Under the pieces are notes generated by a model, which ran no database searches, was not told the DNA's origin, and saw nothing but the letters and a program-made list of their open reading frames with translations. Below, piece after piece: positions 1,656 to 51,819 of a stretch of DNA of 53,794 nt. The translations under genes and the position numbers were made by a program. The stretch is from the IMG/VR virus record IMGVR_UViG_2740892439_000006, positions 1 to 53,794 of that record. One strand, given 5' to 3'. How positions within the stretch are numbered: position 1 is the first letter of the stretch; every line of letters starts with the position of its first letter. This DNA is from a virus (Duplodnaviria > Heunggongvirae > Uroviricota > Caudoviricetes).

Positions 1656-2099
1656 ATGGAAAGCACCAAAACAATTCAATACCGCTTGCGTAATGGCCTG
1701 CTGGTGGCTGTTAACGCCGACATGTCACTGCCGTTTGACACGATTGAACGCACTATCATGACGTATCTCGGCTTTAATGAAGAGCTGAATGAAGAGCATG
1801 GCGTAGCTATATGGAGTGATGCAGACAGCGGCGTTCGTCGTTACATCACCGCCAGGGGCAAAGACTACTCTCTGGAAGAACTGTTTACCCTTGCGCAGTC
1901 TTTCGAATGTGTAGCATTAGACCTGTTTAATGATCCTGCTATAGCGCAACGACTTATACGCGAGCTTGGGCTATCCGTTACACCAATTATCTTTAAAAAT
2001 GGCAGCCTGACTGGCACATGGCGCGTAGAACGCATCTCAAACTACCTTCCATATAACCGACAGTTAAATGGAGTAATCTCCGGCGTTAATCAGCCGTAG
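1656..2099 (+). CDS. hypothetical phage protein
   Basis: 147 aa ORF, tight spacing with upstream gene. Confidence 0.4.
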   Translation: MESTKTIQYRLRNGLLVAVNADMSLPFDTIERTIMTYLGFNEELNEEHGVAIWSDADSGVRRYITARGKDYSLEELFTLAQSFECVALDLFNDPAIAQRLIRELGLSVTPIIFKNGSLTGTWRVERISNYLPYNRQLNGVISGVNQP

Positions 2100-2131
2100 C
2101 GTGTGAAAATGTAAACCTGGTTGTCGCTGTT

Positions 2132-2431
2132 TTGGCAACCGCATGTCGTGTTATCGGTTTGGCTAAACAGGCATTTATTCATTTCCCAAATGGTGCAGAA
2201 GGTAGCGCAGAGATTATCGCGTGTGATTTCGAATTTACCTGGATGCTACGCGAATATCTGGACCAAACAGTATTCCGTGCCGAAGAACTGGATATGTATA
2301 TCACGTCAACGATTCCAGACGATGTGCGAGCTGAAGCAATCGCTATAGCCAGGGCGAAATGCCGTGCGGCGATTGCAGAACGGGCCAAAGAAGAACAGTC
2401 CAATGATACAGCGGCAGAAGAGGTGAAATAA
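2132..2431 (+). CDS. hypothetical protein
   Basis: 99 aa ORF followed by intrinsic terminator. Confidence 0.4.
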   Translation: MATACRVIGLAKQAFIHFPNGAEGSAEIIACDFEFTWMLREYLDQTVFRAEELDMYITSTIPDDVRAEAIAIARAKCRAAIAERAKEEQSNDTAAEEVK

Positions 2432-2433
2432 CA

Positions 2434-2466
2434 AAAAGCCCGCTTGGTATGGCGGGCTTCTTTTCA
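2434..2466. terminator. bidirectional rho-independent terminator
   Basis: stem agcccgc/gcgggct with A-run upstream and T-run downstream, between convergent genes. Confidence 0.6.
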
Positions 2467-5268: not shown

Positions 5269-5457
5269 TCACTCTCCTTTAGTGCGCAAGTGGTTTTTCC
5301 AGCGGTTTTGCGCCGCGCTGGGCTTTTTGCAACAACTGTAACTCATCACCCCGCAGCACCCCGTCAACCTCACTCGTCTGTTACTAATCCTCAACCACCT
5401 CCAGACCCCAACACCGTTTCTGCGAGCTAACAGAATTTTTGCCTTACGGTTTTTCAT
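5269..5457 (-). CDS. small basic protein
   Basis: 62 aa; ATGA overlap with upstream small ORF. Confidence 0.25.
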   Translation of the reverse strand: MKNRKAKILLARRNGVGVWRWLRISNRRVRLTGCCGVMSYSCCKKPSAAQNRWKNHLRTKGE

Positions 5458-5630
5458 CGTTTTGTTCTCCTGCGTTTCTTTGCTGCGCGCCGTGCAGCTG
5501 CAATACCGGTATGGCGGCGCTTTGGTGCCGGGATGATGTTGTCAGCCATCAGGACATGCGGCTTTGCAATTAGCGCAGAAGCCCAAAAACGAGTCGGATA
5601 CGGTAACAAGCCGATACATGCCACACGCAT
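5454..5630 (-). CDS. small basic protein
   Basis: 58 aa; strong RBS aaaggaggtgagta-ATG; start overlaps stop of upstream gene. Confidence 0.3.
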   Translation of the reverse strand: MRVACIGLLPYPTRFWASALIAKPHVLMADNIIPAPKRRHTGIAAARRAAKKRRRTKR

Positions 5631-6108
5631 TACTCACCTCCTTTGGCGTCAATATTTACAGCCTGGCAAGCCTCGTTGAGCACCCAGTCAACCGCGTCTT
5701 TCCATGCTCCGGTTTCAGCTGGCGGATTCTCACACTTTACCTGTTCATAGAAGCGTACAGCCTTAACCAGTCCGTCCGGCACTGCCTGTACCATCTGCGC
5801 CCTGACCCACGCCACCCGCGACGGTTCATATGGCACATGTTGTTCCTTTTTTCTTCATGGTAATGCCCATTACTCTCGTTAAATGGCAACACCTCATACA
5901 GCCCGGCACTTCTGAAATCAGCGTGTAATTGTTCCAGTGCCGCTTCGCTGGAGGTACCGATTGATGTGAGATAATCGAAAAGATTGGCGCATAAACCATA
6001 ATTTCGAGAAAACACCCCACCTGGTTTCGCCCCATTACTCAGCCACAAATCATAAGCAATATAAAACCCGTAAAGCTGTTTTCTGATATTTTCTTTGGTT
6101 TCTTGCAT
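5630..6108 (-). CDS. hypothetical protein, frame interrupted in an A6 run near 5848
   Basis: Two overlapping ORFs (5737..6108 and 5630..5836) join into one if the A-run is A7. Confidence 0.3.
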
Positions 6109-6406: not shown

Positions 6407-6763
6407 TTATTCAGTTCTGGGTTTTGTCGCCCTGCGTATCCGCGCTTTCGCGTTACGCTCAATCTGAATTAACTTTTCTATATTTTTCCGTCTTTCCTGT
6501 TCCTCCTGGCGCAATAGCCTTACATCATCTGCCAGTCTGGTTTCTCTTTTCGCCACAGAGAGCATCCAGTCAAACGGCTCCACAACTGCACCGCAGATTT
6601 TACAGCGGACCTGACGCTCTTTTTCGTCAACCCGGACAGAAGCGTGATGGCAGTATGGTCTTTCCGATGGCTCATAAAGAAAATTAACCTGATCACGTGG
6701 GTCATCCTCCTTTACCGGAAATAAAACAATATTACTTAACTCATCTTCTGGTTTTATTTGCAT
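6407..6763 (-). CDS. hypothetical Cys/His-containing protein
   Basis: 118 aa from MQIKPEDE; RBS aaggagaggag; CHH...C.IC motif. Confidence 0.4.
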   Translation of the reverse strand: MQIKPEDELSNIVLFPVKEDDPRDQVNFLYEPSERPYCHHASVRVDEKERQVRCKICGAVVEPFDWMLSVAKRETRLADDVRLLRQEEQERRKNIEKLIQIERNAKARIRRATKPRTE

Positions 6764-7241
6764 GCTCCTCTCCTTTGATGCGAATGCCAGCGGCGCGTGG
6801 CACATTAACTTCCACGATGCGCACAGTTGGTTTGTACATCTCAATCGCTGTCAGCCAGTCAGCTCCTGTCATGCGCTTTTCCGCATCGCCATTAGTCCAC
6901 TGAACCGGTACACCAATAGCCTTCATCGCAATTTCTATTTCCCCGGCAATGGCGCTTTTCCCGCAACCAGTAAAACCAGAGACAACGACAAGAACTTCGC
7001 CTTTGGCTGGTTTTATTTCCCGCGCCTCCACCTCTGCAATTCGGCACATAGCATCGATATTTGTGTCTTCCAGGCGTTTAACTTCATCCAATAATGCCAA
7101 CGCGATATCTGGCGAAAAGTGCTTCATAAAATCGTTAAGCGCATTAATTCGCTGATCGAAAGGCATTACAGGCGCTTCACCAGCAATTTTTGTTTTTTCA
7201 GCAATTTCACGAAGCTTTTGATAGTCAATTTTGTTTGTCAT
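6741..7241 (-). CDS. P-loop (Walker A) containing phage protein
   Basis: 166 aa; GFTGCGKS motif. Confidence 0.45.
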   Translation of the reverse strand: MTNKIDYQKLREIAEKTKIAGEAPVMPFDQRINALNDFMKHFSPDIALALLDEVKRLEDTNIDAMCRIAEVEAREIKPAKGEVLVVVSGFTGCGKSAIAGEIEIAMKAIGVPVQWTNGDAEKRMTGADWLTAIEMYKPTVRIVEVNVPRAAGIRIKGEEHANKTRR

Positions 7242-15247: not shown

Positions 15248-16173
15248 TGAATCTGTCCATCTCTCAAAAAGCGACAATGACAAGTATTGAGATCGCGGAG
15301 CTGGTGGGTAAGCGTCCTGACAACGTTAAACGCACCATTGAACACCTAGCGGAACGGGGCGTAATAACTTTTCCTCAAATTGAGGAAAAGCCCACCGCAG
15401 GCCGCCCGGCGAGCTATTACGTCTTCGAAGGCGAACAAGGCAAGCGCGATAGTATTATCGTCGTCGCGCAGCTCTCTCCCGAATTCACCGCCCGGCTGGT
15501 GGACCGCTGGCGCGAACTGGAGAGTGCCAAAGTACAGTTAAAATCAAAAGCCGAAATCCTAGCTGAAATGGCGCAAATGCATCTTGAGCATGAACGCCGG
15601 ATCAACGCCGTAAATGCCCAGGTAGCCGAGGTATCAGCACAAGTATCGATGGTCGCTGAAACACTCGAGCAAATAAAGAAAGGCAATATTCCGGAAGGCT
15701 ACATTGGCTACCGCCAGCTGGCGGCGAAATGTGGCCTGACTGAAGCCAAATGCCGAAACCTGGTCAACGCTTACCGGATTCCCACCGATACGCATGAGTT
15801 TTTAACTCCCGATGGTTTGCTTGCGCGACGCTCCATTGTGGCCCTGGCCCCCTTCCGGAAAGCCTTTAAGCAGGTGATGTCGGAGGCAGAACCACGCAAT
15901 AAACGCTGGTATCATCCAAAGATGGGGATGTTTCAGGCAATCCACCATCCTGTGCCTGAAAGTCCAAAGGCAAACCTGTCGTTGCATACCGCCAGAGAGA
16001 GGATTAAAACAGGCTATGCAATCGTATGCCGTCGAGCATCCTGGCCTGAAGGTGTATGGGTGTGGCCCGAAGGTGGATCACGAAAGCACTGGCGCACTAT
16101 CCGGGATGGGAAAATCCATGCGATTGATTTAGCTCCAGAGGATGTTGTTGCTACGGACTGGATTGTTAGTTAA
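15247..16173 (+). CDS. Rha-family antirepressor-like protein with DUF2829-like C-terminus
   Basis: N-terminal SIEIAELVGKRPDNVKRTIEHL (Rha-like); C-terminal YAIVCRRASW...DLAPEDVVATDWIV resembles the DUF2829 region of ORF 972..1649. Confidence 0.55.
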   Translation: MNLSISQKATMTSIEIAELVGKRPDNVKRTIEHLAERGVITFPQIEEKPTAGRPASYYVFEGEQGKRDSIIVVAQLSPEFTARLVDRWRELESAKVQLKSKAEILAEMAQMHLEHERRINAVNAQVAEVSAQVSMVAETLEQIKKGNIPEGYIGYRQLAAKCGLTEAKCRNLVNAYRIPTDTHEFLTPDGLLARRSIVALAPFRKAFKQVMSEAEPRNKRWYHPKMGMFQAIHHPVPESPKANLSLHTARERIKTGYAIVCRRASWPEGVWVWPEGGSRKHWRTIRDGKIHAIDLAPEDVVATDWIVS

Positions 16174-16181
16174 TTACTGTT

Positions 16182-16206
16182 GCCCCGGCCTGTCCGGGGC
16201 TTTAAC
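16182..16206 (+). terminator. weak terminator-like hairpin
   Basis: gccccgg/ccggggc stem followed by ttt. Confidence 0.35.
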
Positions 16207-16232
16207 TACTAAATAACCGGATTCTCCGCACG

Positions 16233-16517
16233 ATGAAGAAAATAGATTTCACTTACTCTGCTGCCACAATCCAGCGACGTTTCAGTCTCATAAGGGAAGT
16301 GGAACTATCAAAAAACTACTATCAAATTCTACTGGATGAAGAGTTTTCACTGATGGTTATAGCAGAAAAATTGGCTATGCCGAATGACCGGCACAAGGTC
16401 ATAGCCAGCCTGGATCTGGTGACAAACAGATACTGGGAATACGAGGAACTACTTGAAGTTGGCTTGATACGCGAGATGATAGAACAGGCTGTTCCCCTCC
16501 ACTTACAGCAACCATAA
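16233..16517 (+). CDS. hypothetical protein
   Basis: 94 aa ORF at start of AT-rich island. Confidence 0.4.
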   Translation: MKKIDFTYSAATIQRRFSLIREVELSKNYYQILLDEEFSLMVIAEKLAMPNDRHKVIASLDLVTNRYWEYEELLEVGLIREMIEQAVPLHLQQP

Positions 16518-16653
16518 TTGAAAGATCTTAACGATAGTCTGCCACGAATAGTTACTTCCACTGCCTAAAGTTATTTAATTGCATTACAAAGTGTAAATTA
16601 GTAACATTAGAATCTCACACAGCACTATAACTATATGTTTTTTATGTAAAAGG

Positions 16654-17013
16654 ATGATAATCGTGGCTACTAAAATTAAACTTGAAAACCCTCAAACTGG
16701 CGAATCAATCACCGGTTTTTATGGTTTTTCCTGGACTACATTCTTGTTTGGTGCTTTTCCAGCTTTGTTCAGGAAAGACTTTATAACTTTTATTGGGGTA
16801 TTTGTAGTTATGCTGATACTGGCATTCCTCACAGCCGGAATTGGCCCGTGGATTGCCTCATTTATCTGGGCGTTCATGTATAATAAATATTTCACCGTAA
16901 ATAAGATAAAACAAGGCTTCATTTTTGCTGGTTCTCACACAGAAAATGAGTTGGCTGCTAGCAAGCTAGGATTGTCATTAAATCAAAACAACTGCAAAAC
17001 TATTACCGAGTAA
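16654..17013 (+). CDS. hypothetical inner-membrane protein
   Basis: 119 aa with two hydrophobic segments. Confidence 0.4.
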   Translation: MIIVATKIKLENPQTGESITGFYGFSWTTFLFGAFPALFRKDFITFIGVFVVMLILAFLTAGIGPWIASFIWAFMYNKYFTVNKIKQGFIFAGSHTENELAASKLGLSLNQNNCKTITE

Positions 17014-17052
17014 AACCAAAAAGCAGGCTTAATAGTAAGCCTGCTATGTCAA

Positions 17053-17886
17053 TCACGAATCTCTCTGACAATTCAGAAACATAAACGCCCGCTTGTCTGT
17101 TAAATCCGTAACATAATACTCTCTCATGCCTGTAGGTTTTATTCTACGAGCATATACAAACTTATGAACTGGTTGTTTTTCCCCATAACTTACATCAGTC
17201 CTAAATTCATCAACCACGCTACCATCTTTTTCAGTTTCCTTTCTCACTAGCTGATTTTCTAATACAGGCTTTGATTCGTCCATGCCACTAAAAGCATCCT
17301 GACCTGTGCTGTTGCCTCGGTTTCCGCGTGGCAAATCCCATGAAAAATAAGTGCCATAGTCAGTAATCACACGATCCCATGTTCCGGAATCCCCCATATA
17401 GTTAGAACGCTCCCCCTTGTAAGTTACAGCCACCTTACAGGCATACGTTTCACCATTATTTTTTTTATCATGTCCAGCCATGCTTGCAGGAGTTGCAGGG
17501 GAATTATGAATAGATGCGCTTACATCATCTTGCGTTAATTCCTCAACTGGAGCAAATTCATATATGGGTGTGCCGAGGCTATTTAAATATAACTTATATC
17601 TAACCCTAAGCGCACTTCCATCTGAGAATTCATACGTTCCCAGGCATTGGAGCTTATTGTTTTCTCTTATCTCATTGATCTGATTATAAGCATCAATTAC
17701 AGAGATTGCTTCCTGCTCGTCCTTCAGCAGTTCATTATAATCATCGATTAACATCTGCCTAGTTTTAGGGGAATTGCAGTCAATTTTGCTAAAATCATAA
17801 GCAAAGGTGAGTGTGGGAACAAAAAGAGCAACAACAGTAGCTAGTATTGTTGAGGAAAATCTTTTTCCATTTTTTATAAAAAACAT
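17053..17886 (-). CDS. putative secreted protein (moron)
   Basis: Start at MFFIKNGKRFSSTILATVVALFVPTLTFA (signal-peptide-like) with RBS ggag; AT-rich. Confidence 0.45.
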   Translation of the reverse strand: MFFIKNGKRFSSTILATVVALFVPTLTFAYDFSKIDCNSPKTRQMLIDDYNELLKDEQEAISVIDAYNQINEIRENNKLQCLGTYEFSDGSALRVRYKLYLNSLGTPIYEFAPVEELTQDDVSASIHNSPATPASMAGHDKKNNGETYACKVAVTYKGERSNYMGDSGTWDRVITDYGTYFSWDLPRGNRGNSTGQDAFSGMDESKPVLENQLVRKETEKDGSVVDEFRTDVSYGEKQPVHKFVYARRIKPTGMREYYVTDLTDKRAFMFLNCQRDS

Positions 17887-18175
17887 TTCATTAACTCCAT
17901 ACCTTACCATCTTAGCCGCGAGCGCGGTCCCTAAAACCATTAACTTCACTGCACCGTCCTTCATGCAATCAAAATGACTTTTATGTTATAAAAATAATCA
18001 GCCAAATCAACATGATTTAGGCCAAATTTCTGTCAATAAATAAAATCCACAAAAAGTGGTTGACACTATTTTGGAAATCACAAACTGCACATAATCCATC
18101 GCGCTAACGGCTCCCGTTGAAGGTTCTTTTGACGATTAACTTTCAGCCGAAGCGCGGTAGGGAGTCATAACGCCA

Positions 18176-19214: not shown

Positions 19215-19544
19215 ATGGGCTATAGCAGACTCGACGATAGGTACATTGAAGACGATATTTTTCGTGCGCTGTTTCACCAGGAAATGATTAAGCGGGTATC
19301 GGAGTATCACTCTGATAATTTCCAGTACACGATAAAGATTGATGAAGTATATCGTTCAGACCTTGCAGCCTACCGGGCGTATGGCAATGCAGATTTACGC
19401 TGGGTATTCCGGGTGCTGGTGGGCCATGAGTCAGAAATGGAAGAAATGCCCGCAGGGACCACATTAACTCTTCCTGATGTGGCATGGCTGAGGAACAAGA
19501 TCCGTGATTACGCGAGCGCGGAACCGGAGATAGAAAATGCCTGA
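19215..19544 (+). CDS. hypothetical protein
   Basis: 109 aa; stop overlaps next start. Confidence 0.45.
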   Translation: MGYSRLDDRYIEDDIFRALFHQEMIKRVSEYHSDNFQYTIKIDEVYRSDLAAYRAYGNADLRWVFRVLVGHESEMEEMPAGTTLTLPDVAWLRNKIRDYASAEPEIENA

Positions 19545-20730
19545 TTTCCTGAAAAACCAAGACGGGCGCTATATCACTGATGGCCTGTCCTCTAAGGACT
19601 TCACACGTTTATTCGACCTTATCAGTAAAGAACAAACCCGTAAGCGCCGACAAGCTCACCGGACGCTGACGCCCGGCAGACTGAGGAACAAATCCGCCGA
19701 AGATATTCTCAAGTTGGGGAAGAAGAAAGGCGGCACATTCTTTACGCGAGACGATCTGAAAGGTTTCGAAAAGCTACGGAGTAAAACGCGCGAAAAATAT
19801 GACAGTAAGACGGCAGGCATCACATACGCCCAGCTGGTGGCATCCAGCCAGGCAATCGATATTAAGCGTGCAAATAACGCCGTGGATGACGGATCTGGTA
19901 TCAAAAGAGCTACACCCGTCTCTCTTCGCCACAATGTGATTAATATCCGCGTAGAAGCATCGGATATATCCGTCCACCAGCACCATATCGTCCGGATACG
20001 CTTTGAAGAATGGGATCAGATGGTTGATGACATCGCAGAAGACGATAAATCAGCTCTGAAAATCACTAAATCACTGTGCGCCGGGCGAGTGTCTTTCGAT
20101 TGTGACTGTGGTCGTCATCAATACTGGTATCGTTACATCGCTACTGCGGGTAACTTTGCCCTGGCCCCGCCAAAAGAATACGCCTATCCAAAAGTCCGTA
20201 ACCCTAAGCTACAAGGCGTCGCCTGTAAACACGTGATCCACTCAATGACGCGGTTACAATCCGCAAGTTGGCAAATGAGTATTGCTCGTGCACTACAAAA
20301 GGCTGCAACGCAAATTGCATTTGGTGACGATCGCCGACGTACAACCAAACACTTCTCAAAAGAAGACGAGAAGGAGTTTAATCGCAATCGTAGCAGTAAA
20401 ACGAACGTTGAAGCCGCCAAACGCGAATGGAGACTCTATCAGAAGCGCCAGGCAGCTTTAAGTACAAAACTGGCAAAGGACAACGGCAAGATCGACAAGC
20501 TACGTGACCAATTGACCAGGGCCAGAAAGTTGTCAGACGCACAGAAAAAACGGGCGGCTGCAAAAGAAGCGGCCTTGCAACGTGAGAAACAGAAAAATAA
20601 GGAACTTCAGCAACGCCTTGCCGATCAGTTCGCACTGAAGAAGCAGGCGTTCATTGATGCGCTTGTCATGGCTGGAACGCCACAAGAACAGGCTGAGAAG
20701 ATGTTTATAGAGTACGTGAAAAAAGCATAA
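19537..20730 (+). CDS. SWIM-zinc-finger-like protein with C-terminal coiled coil
   Basis: FDCDCGRH...(n)...CKHV fits CxCxnCxH; basic coiled-coil tail. Confidence 0.5.
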   Translation: MPDFLKNQDGRYITDGLSSKDFTRLFDLISKEQTRKRRQAHRTLTPGRLRNKSAEDILKLGKKKGGTFFTRDDLKGFEKLRSKTREKYDSKTAGITYAQLVASSQAIDIKRANNAVDDGSGIKRATPVSLRHNVINIRVEASDISVHQHHIVRIRFEEWDQMVDDIAEDDKSALKITKSLCAGRVSFDCDCGRHQYWYRYIATAGNFALAPPKEYAYPKVRNPKLQGVACKHVIHSMTRLQSASWQMSIARALQKAATQIAFGDDRRRTTKHFSKEDEKEFNRNRSSKTNVEAAKREWRLYQKRQAALSTKLAKDNGKIDKLRDQLTRARKLSDAQKKRAAAKEAALQREKQKNKELQQRLADQFALKKQAFIDALVMAGTPQEQAEKMFIEYVKKA

Positions 20731-20775
20731 ACCACACATAGCCTAGTAGTTTATGCTGGGCTTTCATTTTTTTGA
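20717..20775. terminator. bidirectional terminator between convergent genes
   Basis: stem agcataaac/gtttatgct flanked by A-run and T-run. Confidence 0.5.
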
Positions 20776-21492
20776 AAGATCAATTCCAGTATTATCAAAT
20801 AAACTGGAAATATCAGACACCAATTTATTAAAATGCTTGTCATCATTATAGAATGATGTGCTTTTTATAGCGACTATAAAATCACATAAATCTTGCGGAG
20901 ATTCAATGCTAACACCCTTATTTTTATATAGTTCAATAATACTGCCAACATCAGTATGCAATAGTTTTATCGCGCCACAAATTTCTCGCTGTTTCGTAGT
21001 TAGGTCATTAAGTTTATTTTCATTTTCATATAAGATTTGTTTTGAATATTTAGCATCATTGGTTGCTTGATTTAACTTTGTTTTCTTTCTTTGCAATTCT
21101 ATTCTTTTATCATAATCAGCAACTTCATCTAAATATCTTATTTCAGTGTATAATTTACTTGTTAGCTTAGATATCTTCAGTGTGAGAAAAGGAGCTAATA
21201 CAGATGCAAATACTCCATAAATAAATGGAATTACAACGTGATAAACCCACGGGGATACAATCCAATTATCAAAGAACGGGACATTACCACCAACAAAAAC
21301 AATAGATAATGTATATAGGATGTCGTCCTTTGACTTTAATATAATTAAAATATCCTTCCAGTTAATGATTAGAAAAGAAATGACAACATATGCAAAAACC
21401 TTGTTAAATATTTTATCTTTTATAATCTCAGAAAATGATTTTAGTTCTGTTTCATTTATAGACGGATTATCTTTAACTTTTTCTGACATCAT
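20764..21492 (-). CDS. membrane protein with cytoplasmic coiled coil (Abi-like candidate)
   Basis: 242 aa, very AT-rich codon usage, hydrophobic N-terminal half. Confidence 0.45.
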   Translation of the reverse strand: MMSEKVKDNPSINETELKSFSEIIKDKIFNKVFAYVVISFLIINWKDILIILKSKDDILYTLSIVFVGGNVPFFDNWIVSPWVYHVVIPFIYGVFASVLAPFLTLKISKLTSKLYTEIRYLDEVADYDKRIELQRKKTKLNQATNDAKYSKQILYENENKLNDLTTKQREICGAIKLLHTDVGSIIELYKNKGVSIESPQDLCDFIVAIKSTSFYNDDKHFNKLVSDISSLFDNTGIDLSKK

Positions 21493-21513
21493 AGCTTATC
21501 CTGATTACTTTTA

Positions 21514-21714
21514 TTATGGATAGTTAAAAGATTCAACAGGTGATGGTGGCTGAATTGGGTAATGTTTCTTCTCGTACTCCTCAATGAGAAGACTCATAAC
21601 CTCAAAGAAATCACCTTCCGGAGTATTCATTTCCGGTTCGTTATCGAACATCGGTTCGACAGCACGCAGTGCGGCCTCATAATCTTGTTCTGTACGGATA
21701 GGTTTAATGTTCAT
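21514..21714 (-). CDS. HigA-like N-terminal domain fragment (no HTH)
   Basis: 66 aa; TEQDYEAALRAVEPMF...EPEMNTPEGD resembles N-domain of two-domain HigA antitoxins. Confidence 0.4.
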   Translation of the reverse strand: MNIKPIRTEQDYEAALRAVEPMFDNEPEMNTPEGDFFEVMSLLIEEYEKKHYPIQPPSPVESFNYP

Positions 21715-21726
21715 TAATTACAAAGG

Positions 21727-21758
21727 AAAGCCCACTTGCTAAGTGGGCTTTTTGTATG
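21727..21758. terminator. terminator-like hairpin
   Basis: stem agcccactt/aagtgggct followed by ttttt. Confidence 0.35.
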
Positions 21759-21770
21759 TGTTTTACTATA

Positions 21771-22109
21771 TCAGGCTGCTTTTTTATTCAGGTTCCGCTG
21801 AGAAATAAATTTTTCAGCAGTATTGATACGACTTAACTCTTCCTGAACGCGCATATCATTTTCGACTTCCCACAGGTCTACTGCGGTCTGAAGATTAATC
21901 CAAAAATCTACAGAAGTATCGAATGCTTTTGCCAGGCGATATGCCATATCCATCGTTAGCTTACGATTATTATTAACAAGAGCACTTACGGTGTTACGAT
22001 GAACATGAAGTATTTCTGCTAACTCGTTGATCTTCAGCTCTAACGGCTCCAGGTATTCGTACAGCAGGATATCACCTACGGTCGTCGGTTTTCTGGTTGC
22101 CTGTTTCAT
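21771..22109 (-). CDS. higA: HigA-family antitoxin (XRE HTH)
   Basis: VGDILLYEYLEPLELKINELAEILHVHRNTVSALVNNNRKLTMDMAYRLAKAFDTSVDFWINLQ matches HigA family pattern. Confidence 0.7.
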   Translation of the reverse strand: MKQATRKPTTVGDILLYEYLEPLELKINELAEILHVHRNTVSALVNNNRKLTMDMAYRLAKAFDTSVDFWINLQTAVDLWEVENDMRVQEELSRINTAEKFISQRNLNKKAA

Positions 22110-22179
22110 TTTTTGCCCTTACTAGCGTGCGTATTAAGTGGACTCTGGTCAGAACCCGGTCCGTAACCGGGTATCTGTT

Positions 22180-22482
22180 TTAGTATTTGTGAGGGTCGAG
22201 ATACAAGTCCTCGGCCTTTCCGTTAACCCACTTAAAAATTAACCTATATTGCTTATTCACCCTTACTGATGAATAGCCATTTAGCTTCCCTGACAGTTCC
22301 TCATACCGATTACCTGGTGGTGATCTTAAATCCTTACAGGTAGTTGCGGCATTGATAATGTCCAACTTCCGTGACAATGTCATATGAATATCAGGAGGTA
22401 TCTTTCTATGTGGTGTTGAAAATTCAAAAAAATCATCAAGCCACGCATCCCTGAAATCCTTTATGTTAATTTTTTTGGTCAT
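22180..22482 (-). CDS. higB: HigB-family toxin (RelE/ParE superfamily)
   Basis: LRSPPGNRYEELSG...YSSVRVNKQYRLIFKW matches HigB pattern; upstream of higA. Confidence 0.7.
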   Translation of the reverse strand: MTKKINIKDFRDAWLDDFFEFSTPHRKIPPDIHMTLSRKLDIINAATTCKDLRSPPGNRYEELSGKLNGYSSVRVNKQYRLIFKWVNGKAEDLYLDPHKY

Positions 22483-22632
22483 TAGTCATTTGATCCTCCG
22501 TGATGATTACCGAATGCCATAACTATAGCGCACCGTTGCACTGTGCGCAAGTGCATTTTATGAATTCCCCCTCCTTCATCCAAAATCACAATCTCCAGAA
22601 AATCTTCCTTTCGATACCTGACAGATCGACCT

Positions 22633-23436
22633 TTGAGGATGCTTATGGGCCGTTTTGACGAATGGTTTGCTGACGATGCAAACCTGGCAAGTAAGGAGTC
22701 AGAACATGACAGCACGCAGAGAGAAACGCCAGCGCCGATTGAAGCGAATGCAGGAGGCGCGCCGGAACATGGCAATACAGGTTCGGATTCATTCAGCATT
22801 CTGGAAGAGCAACCCGCCGCCAAAGCTGATAGCCATGATAATTTTGCTGATAGCAACGGTGGCCTTACTCCGGATGCTGGCGAATCAGATATAGCCATAC
22901 TTCCATCTTCCCTGGCTGGCAGAGAACCGACTCCACAGTTAAAAGCACGCTATAACGGGCATAAAGCCTTTAACGACCAAATCCGCGCAGACTGGATGCT
23001 GATTATTGAATCCAGCCCAGACGCGTTTCAGGCTCTCTTATATCGACCAGATGTTGGCACATATGGGGTAGTCAGCGACGAAACAGGAGAAGAGTCATTC
23101 ACTGAACTGGATAACAACCAACGCGAACTGACTTACCAGGAACCTGAAATCGTTTATGTGCTGGATAACCCTGACGGGCGTGACTCTTTCCATGCGATTG
23201 ACGCAGACGGTGAGCAGGATGGCTTAACCGATGATGTTCTGATTCTGCGTATTGCAGCAAATAACGTCCCCGTCGGCTCAATTCTTGAATGGAATGAAGA
23301 GATGGTAAACGGCGTAGCGCGCCGCTGGTGGTACGTGCACCGTATTTTTAGCTACGGCACACAGCATGTTGGTTCGCTTTACTACTGCATACCTGCCAGG
23401 AATTTTGATACGACTCAAAACGGAGTGATCGAATGA
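22633..23436 (+). CDS. hypothetical acidic protein (start uncertain)
   Basis: 267 aa track ORF; 3-prime end coupled to next gene (ATGA); N-terminal part overlaps an SD-preceded small ORF in another frame. Confidence 0.35.
   Translation: MRMLMGRFDEWFADDANLASKESEHDSTQRETPAPIEANAGGAPEHGNTGSDSFSILEEQPAAKADSHDNFADSNGGLTPDAGESDIAILPSSLAGREPTPQLKARYNGHKAFNDQIRADWMLIIESSPDAFQALLYRPDVGTYGVVSDETGEESFTELDNNQRELTYQEPEIVYVLDNPDGRDSFHAIDADGEQDGLTDDVLILRIAANNVPVGSILEWNEEMVNGVARRWWYVHRIFSYGTQHVGSLYYCIPARNFDTTQNGVIE
22706..22894 (+). CDS. small basic protein with C-terminal transmembrane helix
   Basis: Strong RBS taaggag 7 nt upstream of ATG; 62 aa, R/K-rich N-terminus then hydrophobic stretch. Confidence 0.35.
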   Translation: MTARREKRQRRLKRMQEARRNMAIQVRIHSAFWKSNPPPKLIAMIILLIATVALLRMLANQI

Positions 23437-41195: not shown

Positions 41196-41687
41196 ATGTC
41201 CGGTTTTGCAAATACAAAAGCCGATATGGCCTTTCTAAAATCCCGGTTTAATAAAAACCTGGCTGCAGGCGAAAAACTTATTGGTTCTGAATATTGGATG
41301 ACCATTAAGGGTTACGAACATCTGTCTGTACTAGTTCGTACAGCTCAGTTACCAGAAATGACACGTGAAGATGTGGAGGATTACGCCCCTGGTGGCATGA
41401 AATTCAACCAGCACGGACCATTACGCAACTCTGGTGAATTTCAGGTCACATGCGCGGAAACTATCGAAGGCGCAGTTCTCGCCGCTGTAAAACAGATGGT
41501 ATACGGAAAAGAATATCTGGAAATTACCTTACAGGCGGCGGCTGAATCGAATAGCGGTAACCATAAAGGTCTGATCCGCACATATTTTCATTGCAAAGTG
41601 TATTCCGACGCCGTGGACTTCTCATCCGAAGACGTAACGGCGGTCGTTAAACCTTCCCTGCGCATTGTTTACAACTGGGCGGAATAA
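41196..41687 (+). CDS. tail tube protein (gp19-like)
   Basis: 163 aa; size and position downstream of sheath; GEFQVTCAET segment resembles T4 gp19 region. Confidence 0.45.
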   Translation: MSGFANTKADMAFLKSRFNKNLAAGEKLIGSEYWMTIKGYEHLSVLVRTAQLPEMTREDVEDYAPGGMKFNQHGPLRNSGEFQVTCAETIEGAVLAAVKQMVYGKEYLEITLQAAAESNSGNHKGLIRTYFHCKVYSDAVDFSSEDVTAVVKPSLRIVYNWAE

Positions 41688-41741
41688 TCCCTATCCCGCC
41701 CTTGTGGCGGGAACATCCTTGTTATTGAGTTGTAGGCAACA

Positions 41742-42140
41742 ATGACACCAATTGAATTATTAGAAAGCGTTAAAGAGCGATTTAATCCGCTGCTTGTGCG
41801 TGAAGAAGAAACGTTGAAAGCATTCCTGATCAAAGCTCTGACCACGTATCAGGACAGGGCAGGGGTAGTGAAAACGTTAAAACTTGAAAAAGCTGGTGGT
41901 ACTGCAATCCCGTTGCCAGAAGATTATCTCTCTCTGGTTCATGTTACCGACAACAACGGCTTGTTGGTCTATTCGGATGAATTATCCGGATTTATTGAAT
42001 TAGAGCTAACAGGTTCAGAACGCTGGCCTTTTCGAATGCTGTATCTGGTTAATCTACGCGACAGAGAGCTGGATGAATGGCAAGTGCTCCTGCAATCATT
42101 GGAATGCTGGAGGAATATCTGGAGGCGCTTATCAATGTAA
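41742..42140 (+). CDS. hypothetical protein (possible tail assembly chaperone, frame 0)
   Basis: 132 aa; overlaps next ORF by 64 bp in minus-one frame. Confidence 0.35.
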   Translation: MTPIELLESVKERFNPLLVREEETLKAFLIKALTTYQDRAGVVKTLKLEKAGGTAIPLPEDYLSLVHVTDNNGLLVYSDELSGFIELELTGSERWPFRMLYLVNLRDRELDEWQVLLQSLECWRNIWRRLSM

Positions 42141-42307: not shown

Positions 42308-43015
42308 GTGAGTATTTTCAGCAGCGTTGGTAGAACGTTGACCACCGCATTGTCATTTAACACGAAATCATTCACCAGCAACCTCATTAGCGACATTCTT
42401 GATAAAGCCATATCAGGCGGCGGGGTAAGCGGGAATTACAGTAGCGATATTGCCTACGGGAAAAATATTGTTGCTGCCGCTATGCGTATCCGTTACGCCC
42501 AGGGGTGGCAGTGGACCGTTGAAGTGGATGGCCTGAACGGCTTCGATATGTTCGTGAAGGATATCACCTACAGCAGTGGAAACATTGAGACAGAAAGCAA
42601 GGTGATCGGCAGCGTAGAATTCAGCAAGCCAACCTATGTTAGCGCCGGACCGGTCACTATGACCGTGAGGGATACCGAAGATGGCAAGATCATGGACTGG
42701 TTCAAAGAGCGTCGTTCTCGTGTAACAAATCCTGATGGAACAATAAACCTTCCTCCTGAATATCTGATGAAAATCCGTGTCTACCGGGTGACTCAGGACG
42801 GCGGAAAAGAACTGGAAGAAGAAATGCGCGTATTTCCTACGCAACTTGGGGAAATCACACGCTCACGTGATCAGGTGTCAGAGTTCTTGTCATACCCAAT
42901 CACTTTCCAGAAATACACATCCGCAGGCTCAGGTGTTTCTGCTTTGGTCAACGGTGCCGCTGGCATGGCTACAAGTGCGTTAAAGGGGGCTGTGAGTGGA
43001 GTGATCAAATTCTGA
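42308..43015 (+). CDS. hypothetical structural protein
   Basis: 235 aa; GTG start. Confidence 0.4.
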   Translation: MSIFSSVGRTLTTALSFNTKSFTSNLISDILDKAISGGGVSGNYSSDIAYGKNIVAAAMRIRYAQGWQWTVEVDGLNGFDMFVKDITYSSGNIETESKVIGSVEFSKPTYVSAGPVTMTVRDTEDGKIMDWFKERRSRVTNPDGTINLPPEYLMKIRVYRVTQDGGKELEEEMRVFPTQLGEITRSRDQVSEFLSYPITFQKYTSAGSGVSALVNGAAGMATSALKGAVSGVIKF

Positions 43016-43029
43016 ATAGCTTTAATTAT

Positions 43030-43400
43030 GTGTGCTGGAGGGTTGCTCATTTCCCGTCAGCACCCACGCCCTCAACGATAGCGGGTAGGGAAGGTAGCGC
43101 AATTTTGAGGGCATTTTTTACATCATCAATTCATCTGTAATGAAGGCATTCTTTACACATTTCAATAATATCAATCAGTTAACACAGTGAATGATAATAA
43201 AAAAGCGCAATAAGAATGCACGATACGCACGATATTGGTTGAGGGCGATTTTTACATAGTCCTTACATATCAATACGTTATATAAAAACACAACTTGCTA
43301 ATAACAAGATACATGCAATTAAGATGTAAAAATTGCCCTCAATTGCCGATCGTTAAGGGCAAATTCTACACCTTGAGAGGGGTGTAAAAATTGCCCTTAA
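43030..43400. repeat. incA-like iteron array downstream of repA
   Basis: Copies of tgagggca(a/t)ttttacatc in both orientations (around 43103, 43238, 43323, 43352, 43381). Confidence 0.6.
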
Positions 43401-44152
43401 GACTGCTGATAGGTAAATTTTATCCTGGTAACTTTGCCGCCTTCCGTCACCTCTGAGAAGACTATTTTCATTTTTGTATTTTTTTCAATCTCTGCTACAG
43501 CCTTCGTTAAAAAACTTCTCTTAAATTCGGCATACCGCTGATAGCTTTTTGGTAACCCATAACGCTCCCGCATCCATTCGACGCCAAGTATGGCAAAGCC
43601 GCTTCCATCATCCTTCCTGTACTGGCATAAGGACTCATAAAGCCGCATAGAATAAGGATTTGTAAGGCGAGATACTTCGGTAAAATTCAGCCTTGTGAAT
43701 CTCTTATCAAGCAGAGTAAAAAACGGCATGAGATATGGATTAAGATGAATAATGTAAGTCCCGCGCCGTGGTGAATAGGCATCCTTAATCATCCAAGGAT
43801 AAGACTCATAACTGTCTTCTGATTCGGTCGATTCATCAGGGTTATATATCGTAACTTTCTTCTCGCTAAGCCCTGAAATGGCCTTACGAATATCCTTGCT
43901 GGCTTCAGCAGAGGGCAAATTATACATCTCTGCATATTCGTTGACCGTCAACTCACAGGCACCTGAACCAAGAACGCCATCCTTAGAAGCATAGCGAAGT
44001 CTTCCCACCACAATAAACAACAGTCGCTTTTGGTCGCGAGTCAGGTGATAAGCAGCCTCCGTGATCTCATTGGCTTGTGCCAAACTACGACTAATAGGTG
44101 TCGCTGACTCAATCAGGCTGACGGCTTTTGCTGTTAATTCCGCTCTGTTCAT
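43397..44152 (-). CDS. repA: iteron-binding replication initiator RepA (Rep_3-like)
   Basis: Gene flanked on both sides by 19-22 bp iterons; start at MNRAELTAK chosen by RBS; family from context and size. Confidence 0.8.
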   Translation of the reverse strand: MNRAELTAKAVSLIESATPISRSLAQANEITEAAYHLTRDQKRLLFIVVGRLRYASKDGVLGSGACELTVNEYAEMYNLPSAEASKDIRKAISGLSEKKVTIYNPDESTESEDSYESYPWMIKDAYSPRRGTYIIHLNPYLMPFFTLLDKRFTRLNFTEVSRLTNPYSMRLYESLCQYRKDDGSGFAILGVEWMRERYGLPKSYQRYAEFKRSFLTKAVAEIEKNTKMKIVFSEVTEGGKVTRIKFTYQQS

Positions 44153-49538: not shown

Positions 49539-50963
49539 CGATTACAGAATTACTGGACAAATTTAATGCCAAGTTAAATGAAAACACATGGTGGTCACGA
49601 TTTGTAAATAGTCAGTTTGTGCAGATGCACGCTATATTCGGATCACAGCTTATTTATATTGCCCGTACATTTGCAAGCCGCGGCCTCACTGAGGGACTTA
49701 TTTCAACGGCTACGCGCCGCTCAAGTATTTTAGCGGTTGCTGAAGACCGTAGCTACGTAGGGCGATTTGTTAGTGCTTCATACGGAACAACGTCTATAAC
49801 CAATAAAACTGATCGGGATATTACGTTACCAGCCGGGGCTGAATTGCTTGCCAATGACCAAACACCTTTGGCAATTATTAACAGTGTTGTAATTCCTGCT
49901 GGAGGAACTGTTTCTGGCGTAGAACTAAACAGCATGAAGCTGTTAGCGTTACATTTGATATTGAGAAGGAAACTTTATTTCTGACATTGTTGCTTTCCAG
50001 AGAGTTAACAAAAGAAGTCTCTAGCCTTGATGTTTATGTTATTACAGATGGCGTAGAAGAAAAATGGACATATAACCCATTATTTAGAATGTCCAGAGAC
50101 AAGAGTAAGCACTATTCATTGGCATATAAACCTACAGAACAACTTGGAGTCAAGTTTGGTGATGGTTCTATGGGTATGATGCCTCCAGCAGGCTGTCAGG
50201 TTCGAATCGATGTTATGGCTAGCTTGGCGACTATACTTTGGCTGAAGGACAAAAGTTAGAACCGGCTGGAAATATCGCTCAATATGTGGAGTCACTAGAG
50301 TTTAAAATTGATTCGATCATTACCGGTGGTAGTGGTATGGAAACTACAGAAGAAACTCGAAATCGTGCTCAGTATTATGTTGCATACGATGAACAAGTGG
50401 TATGGGGCGGTGATTATCGCCAATTCATTCAGAATGTTGTTCATGGAACTTCATGGTTGAACGTTTGGGGCGAAGCGTTACAAGAGAAAATAACTGGGTT
50501 TGACGTTCGAAACATCAACAAAATTTTCTTTTGCGGACATAAGCCGGGTGTAAGCCAGGCTCAGCTAAAATCAGAAATACTGAAAGCTCTAGAGAATGTT
50601 CCAAATGAGTTGAACAAGCGGTTCGAGTATGTAGATACAAATGAACAGCCATTTACTATAAATTTTATAGGTATTGCACGTAAAAATGTTCTGATAGACG
50701 ATGCTCAAAATGCTATTAAAGCAGCGTTGGAAGATAATTTTGGCCGTGATTCGTCATCATTCAGTTTATTACTACAGAGTGATGATGATTCCCAGCAATG
50801 TTATGCACAGGTAAAAGTTAAAGATATTTGGCGAGTAATAGAGTCTCTGGATATGTTTCTGTCTTACGACATAACAATACAAAATATGAAAGATGCTGTT
50901 TACTTTAATGACTTCATTTATCTTGACGTGAAATCTTCAACGTTCAGCATTTCTTACCCGTAA
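49535..50963 (+). pseudogene. baseplate J-like protein split into three consecutive ORFs by two minus-one frame changes
   Basis: ORFs 49535..49984, 49987..50259, 50238..50963 in frames 2,1,0 with no RBS for the second and third. Confidence 0.4.
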
Positions 50964-50973
50964 TGAGGTTAGC

Positions 50974-51819
50974 ATGAAAGATAATTGGCTTAAGGAACGA
51001 TTAACTAAAGTAAAACAGGATTCCCATCTCTGGAGTGCCTTTATAGACGCTTTGCAAGATGTCTGGAATGAGGCAGTAGAACCAATATTAACAAGAATAA
51101 GTAACAGAAAATCCTTCTTCACTATGGACAGTGAGGATATGGATGCCCGCATTGCTGAATACGGGCGTTTTTTCGTTATCACTGAAAAAGATAAGGCCCG
51201 TAGGCCAATGCTGCTGGCGCAACGTTTAGATGAAGTGCACTTTAAAGGCACTATCTTGCCTATTGAGCAGACATTCTGGCGTGAATTCGGTTGTATTCCT
51301 GTTAGTTGGGAACCGCTATATGCACCTGTAAATATAGAAAAACACCCCTATGGTTCATATTTTGCGACCGAAATAGAAATACCTACGGCACAGGCTCAAT
51401 TCGGTGAGTTCTTCCTGACATCAAGGGGGCTGGTCGTTGTTGATCAGAACAAGCTATATCGCTCATATGGAGAGCAGGATAAAGAAGCCGCTGTGCAGAA
51501 ATTGTTATCTGACTTCGAAACAGTAATAGCCCCTTTGTTGCCATTGCATATTGTTTTTGATGGCGTCTCGTTTCGGCTTAGTGCTGTATTCCCTGAAGTG
51601 GCAGAAATACTAAATTGCTTGTCTACGGATGTTTCGGTAATTGAAGGTGTTTATGTTACTGAGAGTATGGCTGATATGCTATCCCGTAGTGATACCTCCT
51701 GCCAGGTAGACAATATTTCTCTTAACGCCATACCGAACCGAACGGCAGAAAAGCAATTACATCTTGATGTAACCCCACTCGATGCGTGGCCTTTGGATTA
51801 CCACCTTCAACCTGTTTAA
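50974..51819 (+). CDS. baseplate/tail protein (gpI-like, tentative)
   Basis: 281 aa downstream of J-like gene. Confidence 0.4.
   Translation: MKDNWLKERLTKVKQDSHLWSAFIDALQDVWNEAVEPILTRISNRKSFFTMDSEDMDARIAEYGRFFVITEKDKARRPMLLAQRLDEVHFKGTILPIEQTFWREFGCIPVSWEPLYAPVNIEKHPYGSYFATEIEIPTAQAQFGEFFLTSRGLVVVDQNKLYRSYGEQDKEAAVQKLLSDFETVIAPLLPLHIVFDGVSFRLSAVFPEVAEILNCLSTDVSVIEGVYVTESMADMLSRSDTSCQVDNISLNAIPNRTAEKQLHLDVTPLDAWPLDYHLQPV

Follow-up and report, generated by a model that had tools for sequence, protein, structure and literature searches.

The RexB protein of phage lambda, SieB of P22 and lambda, gp15 of HK97 and Imm of T4 are small inner-membrane proteins involved in exclusion or abortive infection (Abi); the genes encoding them are morons, expressed from the prophage and dispensable to the phage that carries them. 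PD-lambda-2, an E. coli Abi system that has been validated experimentally, is composed of three genes and resembles a toxin-antitoxin (TA) locus; one of its products, PD-lambda-2C, plays no part in neutralising the toxin, yet defence depends on it (Vassallo et al. 2022, PMC9519451). The gene described here, henceforth the target gene, lies directly downstream of TA genes in the IMG/VR virus record IMGVR_UViG_2740892439_000006, the whole of which (positions 1 to 53,794; referred to as the window, 53,794 nt long) was analysed, and is predicted to encode a membrane protein of 242 amino acids (aa). Judged by its similarity, this is a homologue of orf73 of Escherichia phage D6 and a member of the uncharacterised phrog_8191 family. 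The target gene is an accessory gene, is under purifying selection, and occupies a site at which strongly diverged alleles replace one another between otherwise nearly identical elements. The reading to which we lean, at somewhat less than even confidence, is that it encodes a membrane exclusion or abortive-infection protein expressed in the plasmid state of the element.

The region is 82% identical to phage D6, and 98–99% identical to around 78 plasmids of approximately 90 kb from E. coli, Salmonella and Shigella. This similarity places the window, as a D6-like element, within the P1 phage-plasmid family. The target gene is a real gene: the ATG start and the stop codon coincide exactly with 20764..21492 on the minus strand in the list of open reading frames (ORFs), as in the initial annotation of this DNA, and in the window the ATG is preceded, at 6 nt, by a good Shine-Dalgarno sequence, AGGA. 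The phrog_8191 profile, which represents a family of unknown function, covers residues 1–242 of the translation with an E value of 7e-121, making the protein a full-length member, and D6 orf73, annotated as a hypothetical protein, is 57% identical to it at the aa level. With a GC content of 28.3%, relative to 46.5% for the window and 38–50% for the neighbouring genes, the gene is as AT-rich as had been claimed; low GC is common to all the alleles (28–35%) and to the whole family.

An exhaustive hidden Markov model search of 1.84 billion cluster representatives identified 45 representatives of the family at E<1e-3, ranging from 200 to 320 aa in length. Alignment of 32 members revealed an N-terminal signature of the form KDKLFNK..Y...SF...NW..ILIL.KSK.DI..TL, succeeded by LP...G..AS...P..T, within which N44 and P89 are invariant and S39, W45 and P101 are shared by at least 90% of the sequences. 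The signature leads into a polar helical region, the length of which varies, and this in turn into a short C-terminal domain. A word-indexed homologue search using the family alignment was dominated by coiled-coil words, and gained only one extra protein; the related loci considered below (numbered with the prefix L, as family proteins are with P) were collected using a closer sub-alignment of the family.

Comparison of these loci reveals the target gene to be a dispensable accessory gene, or moron. It is absent from P1, from the D6-like plasmids of locus L004, in which the site holds HigB and helix-turn-helix (HTH) protein genes only, and from L005, a D6-like plasmid of E. fergusonii. In L025 and L028 the gene is frameshifted or truncated, whilst in L048, which represents 54 Klebsiella plasmids, the copy is cut by IS903B. 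This pattern of presence and absence rules out a role in phage structure or morphogenesis, a role that, by the terms of the initial annotation, would have spoken against the gene as an Abi-like candidate. The same site in L005, at the junction of genes 25 and 7, is occupied by an unrelated gene of 179 aa (1908–2447, minus strand) with no Pfam match, annotated as encoding a 'stationary phase growth adaptation protein'; hence this junction is a general hot spot for cargo.

At least nine alleles are found at this one site, with pairwise aa identities of 30–80%. In loci with the same backbone, the protein encoded at the target site is 97, 60, 46, 45, 43, 41, 38, 37 or 36% identical to that of the window, whereas gp26, gp25, HigA, HigB, the HTH protein, gp7 and gp24 are 96–100% identical to their window equivalents in most of these loci. 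The divergence is unevenly spread along the protein: across nine alleles, the mean pairwise identity is 58% in the membrane part (residues 20–120), 24.5% in the helix (121–191) and 35% in the C-terminal domain. A second, distant lineage of the P1 supergroup displays the same behaviour, with P0030 and P0039 being 27% identical between flanking proteins that are 83–93% identical. In the plasmid collection, 71 records contain the window-type allele, as defined by an aa identity of at least 90%, and some allele is carried by around 99 Escherichia, Salmonella and Shigella plasmid records, there being 117 records with a D6-type gp25. The target site is a hot spot of long standing at which alleles turn over, and the target gene ends a TA cassette found repeatedly, in several lineages of plasmids and phage-plasmids; the pattern of alleles is arms-race-like.

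Across ten copies of the window-type allele, the ratio of non-synonymous to synonymous polymorphism (pN/pS) is 0.30, as against 0.06–0.14 for most of the flanking genes, which indicates that this allele is under purifying selection. In addition, the full-length ORF is retained in all nine diverged alleles. Both observations bear upon the proposal that the gene is a decaying, non-functional hitch-hiker, held in place by the adjacent addiction modules. Such a history would suit the frameshifted, truncated and IS-cut copies, the poor codon usage of the gene and the negative promoter scan described below; however, given the pN/pS value, the conservation of the same set of motif residues (N44 and P89; S39, W45 and P101) through nine full-length alleles, the good Shine-Dalgarno sequence in the window and a confident structural model, it deserves hardly any credence.

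The target protein has two hydrophobic stretches, at approximately residues 31–53 and 81–105, in which the 19-residue Kyte-Doolittle means reach 1.97 and 2.05 respectively. Lysine and arginine residues are found at both the N- and C-terminal sides of each stretch and the loop between the two is acidic, a distribution that by the positive-inside rule fits a topology in which both termini would be cytoplasmic. A model generated by AlphaFold2 from the 32-sequence alignment had a predicted local distance difference test score (pLDDT) of 81, whereas that generated from three sequences scored 46 and was unusable. In the former, an amphipathic helix (residues 11–28) precedes a first hydrophobic segment modelled as two helices (31–43 and 45–53), with a kink at N44-W45 in the stretch N44-W45-K46-D47. 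There follow a short helix (58–65) and a loop, and then a single unbroken helix spanning residues 81–191, for which blocks over 81–170 have pLDDT values of 89–98. The three helices of the C-terminal domain (199–210, 213–216 and 219–234) are modelled less confidently, with block values of 38–74 over residues 191–242. The membrane anchor proposed for the hydrophobic N-terminal half of the protein is thus upheld as two predicted hydrophobic helices.

A predicted cytoplasmic helix of about 85 residues continues the second membrane helix and probably forms a coiled coil; the protein may oligomerise. A cytoplasmic coiled coil had also formed part of the initial annotation, and is borne out in so far as the modelled helix is long and the heptads at its ends are good, the hydrophobicity at the a and d positions being 0.75–0.88 at residues 100–134 and 163–197; however, within the very polar stretch 121–162 the heptads are weak (0.5–0.62). 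The top Foldseek matches to the model are K+ channels, the best being 1f6g with an E value of 1.7 and a probability of 0.13. A KcsA-like channel, with two transmembrane helices (2TM) and a P-loop, was rejected as a candidate, the 'VGG' that comes after the short helix not being conserved in the family.

Neither Pfam nor PADLOC contained a match to the target protein at E≤0.1, and there was none in NCBIfam. Pfam and PADLOC scans of all 32 family members produced only coiled-coil noise (for example ZapB, JetC, LmuB and PD-Lambda-1), as did a search of the sequences in the PDB with a profile of the family, which found coiled coils only. Literature searches on D6 orf73, on defence hot spots in phage-plasmids and on tripartite HigBA systems returned no description of the target gene. 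The features of the gene and its surroundings are listed in the table.

Table. Features of the target gene and the cassette in which it lies, with positions in the window
Feature	Position	Strand	Basis and remarks
Target gene	20764..21492	-	ORF call; 242 aa; homologue of D6 orf73, phrog_8191; window-type allele
First hydrophobic helix, codons 31-53	21334..21402	-	Hydropathy; AlphaFold2 prediction; N44 invariant in the family, W45 nearly so
Second hydrophobic helix, codons 81-105	21178..21252	-	Hydropathy; AlphaFold2 prediction; P89 invariant, P101 nearly so
Polar continuation of the helix, codons 106-191 (probable coiled coil)	20920..21177	-	AlphaFold2 prediction; heptads; part most variable between alleles
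Predicted three-helix C-terminal domain, codons 192-242	20767..20919	-	AlphaFold2 prediction; variable between alleles, mean identity 35%
Hairpin separating the gene 25 stop codon from that of the target gene	20740..20762		Intrinsic terminator of the + strand; left edge of the variable segment
66 aa ORF, N-terminal half of a HigA-like HTH protein (D6 orf72)	21514..21714	-	phrog_10398, phrog_1373; PD-Lambda-2_B, E=2.5e-16
G+C hairpin between higA and the 66 aa ORF	21725..21753		-17.9 kcal/mol, z = -5.5; terminator-like on both strands, with the better U-run on +
HigA antitoxin, Xre HTH	21771..22109	-	TIGR02607, E=8e-30; PF01381
HigB toxin, RelE-like	22180..22482	-	PF05015, E=4e-35
Left-hand flanking gene, homologous to P1 tail gene 25; encodes the 'SWIM' protein of the initial annotation	19537..20730	+	D6/P1 annotation; 57% aa identity to P1 gp25
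Right-hand flanking gene, homologous to P1 tail gene 7	22633..23436	+	D6/P1 annotation

In P1, genes 26-25-7-24-6-5 form an unbroken late operon, in which the gene 25 stop and the gene 7 start are 3 nt apart. In D6-like elements, a cassette on the opposite strand has been inserted at this junction, such that in the window the gp26 and gp25 homologues are found to one side of it and gp7, gp24, gp6 and gp5 to the other, all on the plus strand. The target gene is consequently convergent with its left-hand neighbour, as previously noted, although the 'SWIM operon' to which that neighbour had been assigned is actually the 26-25 pair of P1 tail genes; a CxC...CxH motif is present in the gp25 homologue, which has no match in Pfam at E≤0.1. 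The hairpin that separates the two genes had been described as a bidirectional terminator, but by consensus it is one on a single strand only: nine base pairs are followed on the plus strand by UUUCAUUUUUUU, giving a good terminator in that direction, whereas the minus strand lacks a U-run. No part of 20400–22800 came near the gathering score of any Rfam family.

Reading along the minus strand, the window cassette is composed of HigB, HigA, a hairpin, the 66 aa ORF and, after a gap of 21 nt, the target gene. The HigB (PF05015) and HigA (TIGR02607) pair is 99–100% identical to that of D6. The D6 counterpart of the 66 aa ORF, orf72, is 119 aa long, has a C-terminal Xre-type HTH domain (PF01381) and matches positions 1–119 of PD-Lambda-2_B with an E value of 4e-43; the window ORF aligns with positions 1–65 of this 402-position profile, its HTH half being gone. 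No other form is as common in the plasmid collection as this HTH-less, 66 aa allele type. Alignment of the window with D6 shows how it arose: rightwards from 21541 the two are 99–100% identical at the nucleotide level, in the interval 21493–21540 they are 58% identical and around 160 nt are absent from the window, and over the target gene the identity is 68%. The breakpoints are sharp, and that on the right, near 21540, is inside orf72; the window allele therefore came by recombination, without the HTH half. The proposal that the gene was acquired recently, made on the strength of its composition, needs qualification: its low GC is family-wide, the site has long been a hot spot, and the gene is no lone newcomer.

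Further features of the window were observed in passing. Ahead of gene 7, at approximately 22548–22565 on the plus strand, the sequence CAAGTGCAT-tt-TATGAAT resembles the P1 late promoter LP26 (CAAATGACT-agcg-GTAGAAT); such a site would restart the late transcription of 7-24-6-5 beyond the cassette and its plus strand terminators. Other patches of low GC (0.38–0.41) are found at 16000–18000, 43000–44000 and 50000–51000, the first of which holds a membrane-like ORF of 119 aa (16654–17013, plus strand) and a simB-like gene (17053–17964, minus strand).

In D6-like elements, the family gene always follows the HTH gene, but what lies upstream of the latter differs. In L003, L022-24, L028, L029 and L049 it is a PF09907 HigB that matches PD-Lambda-2_A (E=1e-41), whilst in D6 and the window the PF05015 HigB/HigA pair is found instead. 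Genes for a toxin and an antitoxin, followed by the family gene, are arranged in this order also in L027, a distant D6-like contig, in the Klebsiella IncFIB plasmid L048, in L045 and in L036. In L048 (3204–4414; Klebsiella pneumoniae, with 54 similar records), a trio of HigB, HTH and family genes is present, with the third gene truncated by IS903B, and its products are 99%, 99% and 93% identical to those of L027; the trio has therefore moved en bloc between a phage-plasmid and a non-phage plasmid. A second insertion site is used in the other lineage of the P1 supergroup, where the cassette lies between homologues of the window ORFs 41196–41687 and 41742–42140. This site (41687–41742) is empty in the window, and contains HigB-HTH in L045 and TacA-TacT in L036. 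Neither the trio of HigB, HTH and membrane protein nor the orf73 family is described in the searchable literature or in four profile libraries.

Other members of the family are found among genes linked to defence or to mobility. In L035, a DUF4145 protein (5309–5989, plus strand) that matches PD-T7-4 (E=5e-13), a defence system of one gene, ends 12 nt before P0036; one relative shares an island with genes for an integrase, a WYL/WCX regulator and GmrSD, and another adjoins an AAA_13 ATPase and integrase fragments. Solitary chromosomal copies also exist, in L046 and, between housekeeping genes of Enterobacter, in L007, and on the basis of these the family gene could act alone. A separate observation concerns the integrase/WYL/GmrSD island of L037: directly after P0027, at 6707–6790 on the minus strand, there is a 28 aa remnant resembling the C terminus of gp25 (57% identity, E=3e-4), which may be the scar of a capture from a D6-like element.

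The recurrent association with TA genes raises the question of whether the target gene supplies the third, indispensable part of a three-component defence cassette of the TA type. In such an analogue of PD-lambda-2, made up of a HigB-like toxin, a HigA-like HTH protein and a membrane protein, the last would be the sensor or effector that links infection to release of the toxin. The matches of relatives' HigB and HTH proteins to PD-Lambda-2_A and the N terminus of PD-Lambda-2_B, the need for PD-lambda-2C in defence, the en bloc movement of the L027/L048 trio, and the repetition of the same gene order in L003, L022-24, L029, L049, L027, L045, L036 (with TacAT) and L048 are all consistent with this. 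However, the partners are found apart in both directions, the HigB-HTH pair occurring without the family gene in L004 and the family gene without TA genes in L007 and L046. Nor do they vary together, for in most loci with an intact HTH protein the latter is 97–100% identical whilst its partner alleles are 36–60% identical to the window allele, and the trees of the TA genes and of the family gene conflict. Furthermore, the window has no PD-lambda-2A-like HigB and only 66 aa of the HTH protein, and yet in this commonest form the target gene is intact and under purifying selection; homology to PD-Lambda-2_C is lacking as well. An obligate tripartite system is consequently unlikely in our estimation.

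A smaller unit can also be envisaged, in which the target protein is a membrane-damaging toxin and the adjacent HigA-like HTH protein its antitoxin or repressor, orf72 and orf73 thus forming a two-gene TA pair. An Xre-type HTH gene is immediately upstream in nearly all the phage-plasmid copies, and toxins are commonly two-helix membrane proteins. Nevertheless, in the commonest allele type the HTH domain is gone but the target gene remains, and the two partners do not co-vary, on which grounds we reject this arrangement as very improbable; in L003 and L004, moreover, the HTH protein has a cognate HigB of its own, to which it is translationally coupled, and the solitary chromosomal copies lack any such partner.

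Conflict with other phages remains the best supported explanation of the target gene, because it is dispensable, is under purifying selection within an allele, has a rapid turnover of alleles and has validated defence genes as neighbours. The gene lies on the same strand as the TA genes, directly downstream of them and opposite the late tail operon; being behind genes for plasmid maintenance, which have to be active in the plasmid, or lysogenic, state, it is placed for low expression in that state. The protein would then protect the lysogen from other phages, through either superinfection exclusion (Sie) or Abi. The variable cytoplasmic helix and C-terminal domain might recognise a phage-derived cue or partner, whereupon the conserved membrane module would act upon the inner membrane, so as either to stop entry or to permeabilise or depolarise it.

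Several points weigh against a defensive function. No Abi, Sie or other defence family is similar to the protein by sequence, in Pfam, NCBIfam or PADLOC, or by fold. The promoter scan detected no minus strand site in 21493–21770, and hence no sigma-70 promoter directly upstream of the target gene, and in the D6-type alleles the HTH gene and the target gene are separated by a hairpin bearing a T-run; the simplest route to expression would therefore be attenuated read-through from the TA promoter. The association with TA genes could merely reflect a shared hot spot for insertion, and not every accessory gene of a mobile element that is AT-rich and evolves quickly serves in defence.

A further view is that the target gene encodes an accessory membrane protein with some role other than defence, whether in the element's own lysis or lysogeny, in plasmid maintenance, in the exclusion of related plasmids or in the physiology of the host envelope. 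The presence of the family on non-phage IncFIB plasmids and on chromosomes could be accounted for in this way, as could its lack of homology to defence proteins and the growth-adaptation annotation of the gene at the same site in E. fergusonii. Yet the life cycle of P1 runs without the target gene, and the diversity of alleles in near-identical backbones, alongside validated defence neighbours, is most simply interpreted as conflict with mobile elements, such that we consider a non-defence role improbable. Even were it correct, the locus would still be a clear case of the exchange of hot-spot cassettes inside a late operon.

Should the target gene instead be an exclusion or Abi factor, its distribution makes it a relevant one. 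Phage-plasmids of the D6 and P1 types are often found in E. coli, Salmonella and Shigella, and most of the 117 plasmids with a D6-type gp25 carry an allele. The presence of at least nine alleles, 30–80% identical, in near-identical backbones amounts to a natural specificity-swap experiment. Given such a function, each allele would be expected to correspond directly to a phage target of its own, and a new effector should come to light in the conserved membrane module. The placement of the gene behind interchangeable TA pairs also bears upon the role of third genes in TA-type defence, of which PD-lambda-2 is an example. A broader proposal, which we put forward only tentatively and regard as rather doubtful, is that the orf73 family constitutes a new class of anti-phage membrane proteins, each with a two-helix effector and a hypervariable sensor to which both the cytoplasmic helix and the C-terminal domain contribute. 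Travelling in third place within interchangeable TA cassettes (HigB-HigA or TacAT), the family gene would form with them a modular unit, 'TA plus membrane partner', common to phage-plasmids, conjugative-type plasmids and chromosomal islands.

Comparison with described systems reveals partial resemblances to several. The CBASS, retron and SLATT 2TM effectors likewise carry a pair of membrane helices and presumably target the membrane, and one family member matches the '2TM effector' of PADLOC (E=4e-4). However, this is one weak match among 32 members, the target protein matches neither SLATT in Pfam nor anything in PADLOC, and no partner that generates a nucleotide signal is present near the target gene. 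The PD-lambda-1/DUF4041-type proteins share the succession of a membrane anchor and a central coiled coil, and P0036 matches the PD-Lambda-1 models with an E value of around 2e-5; this match spans the coiled coil only, whilst the orf73 family lacks the C-terminal nuclease and the target protein itself has no match.

The resemblance to PD-lambda-2 is one of neighbours and layout. The two genes upstream of the family gene in relatives match PD-Lambda-2_A and the N-terminal 119 residues of PD-Lambda-2_B, and both loci have three genes, the third of PD-lambda-2 being unrelated to neutralisation. In contrast to PD-lambda-2, the B homologue is without a peptidase domain, being 119 aa long where the profile has 402 positions, and neither D6 orf73 nor the target protein has a PADLOC match, so that they are not homologous to PD-Lambda-2_C. 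In the window the departure is greater still, with the A homologue replaced by the PF05015 HigB/HigA, of which HigB has no PADLOC match, and with B cut to 66 aa.

RexB, SieB, gp15 and Imm differ from the target protein in sequence, there being no match in Pfam (including the SieB family) at E≤0.1, and in fold; to our knowledge, none of them has an 85-residue cytoplasmic helix followed by a C-terminal domain. They are nevertheless like it in being the predicted or known small inner-membrane products of morons that the phage can do without. Membrane exclusion and Abi proteins borne by plasmids and prophages are thus familiar as a kind, to which the orf73 family would add a new family, a new architecture and a new series of alleles.

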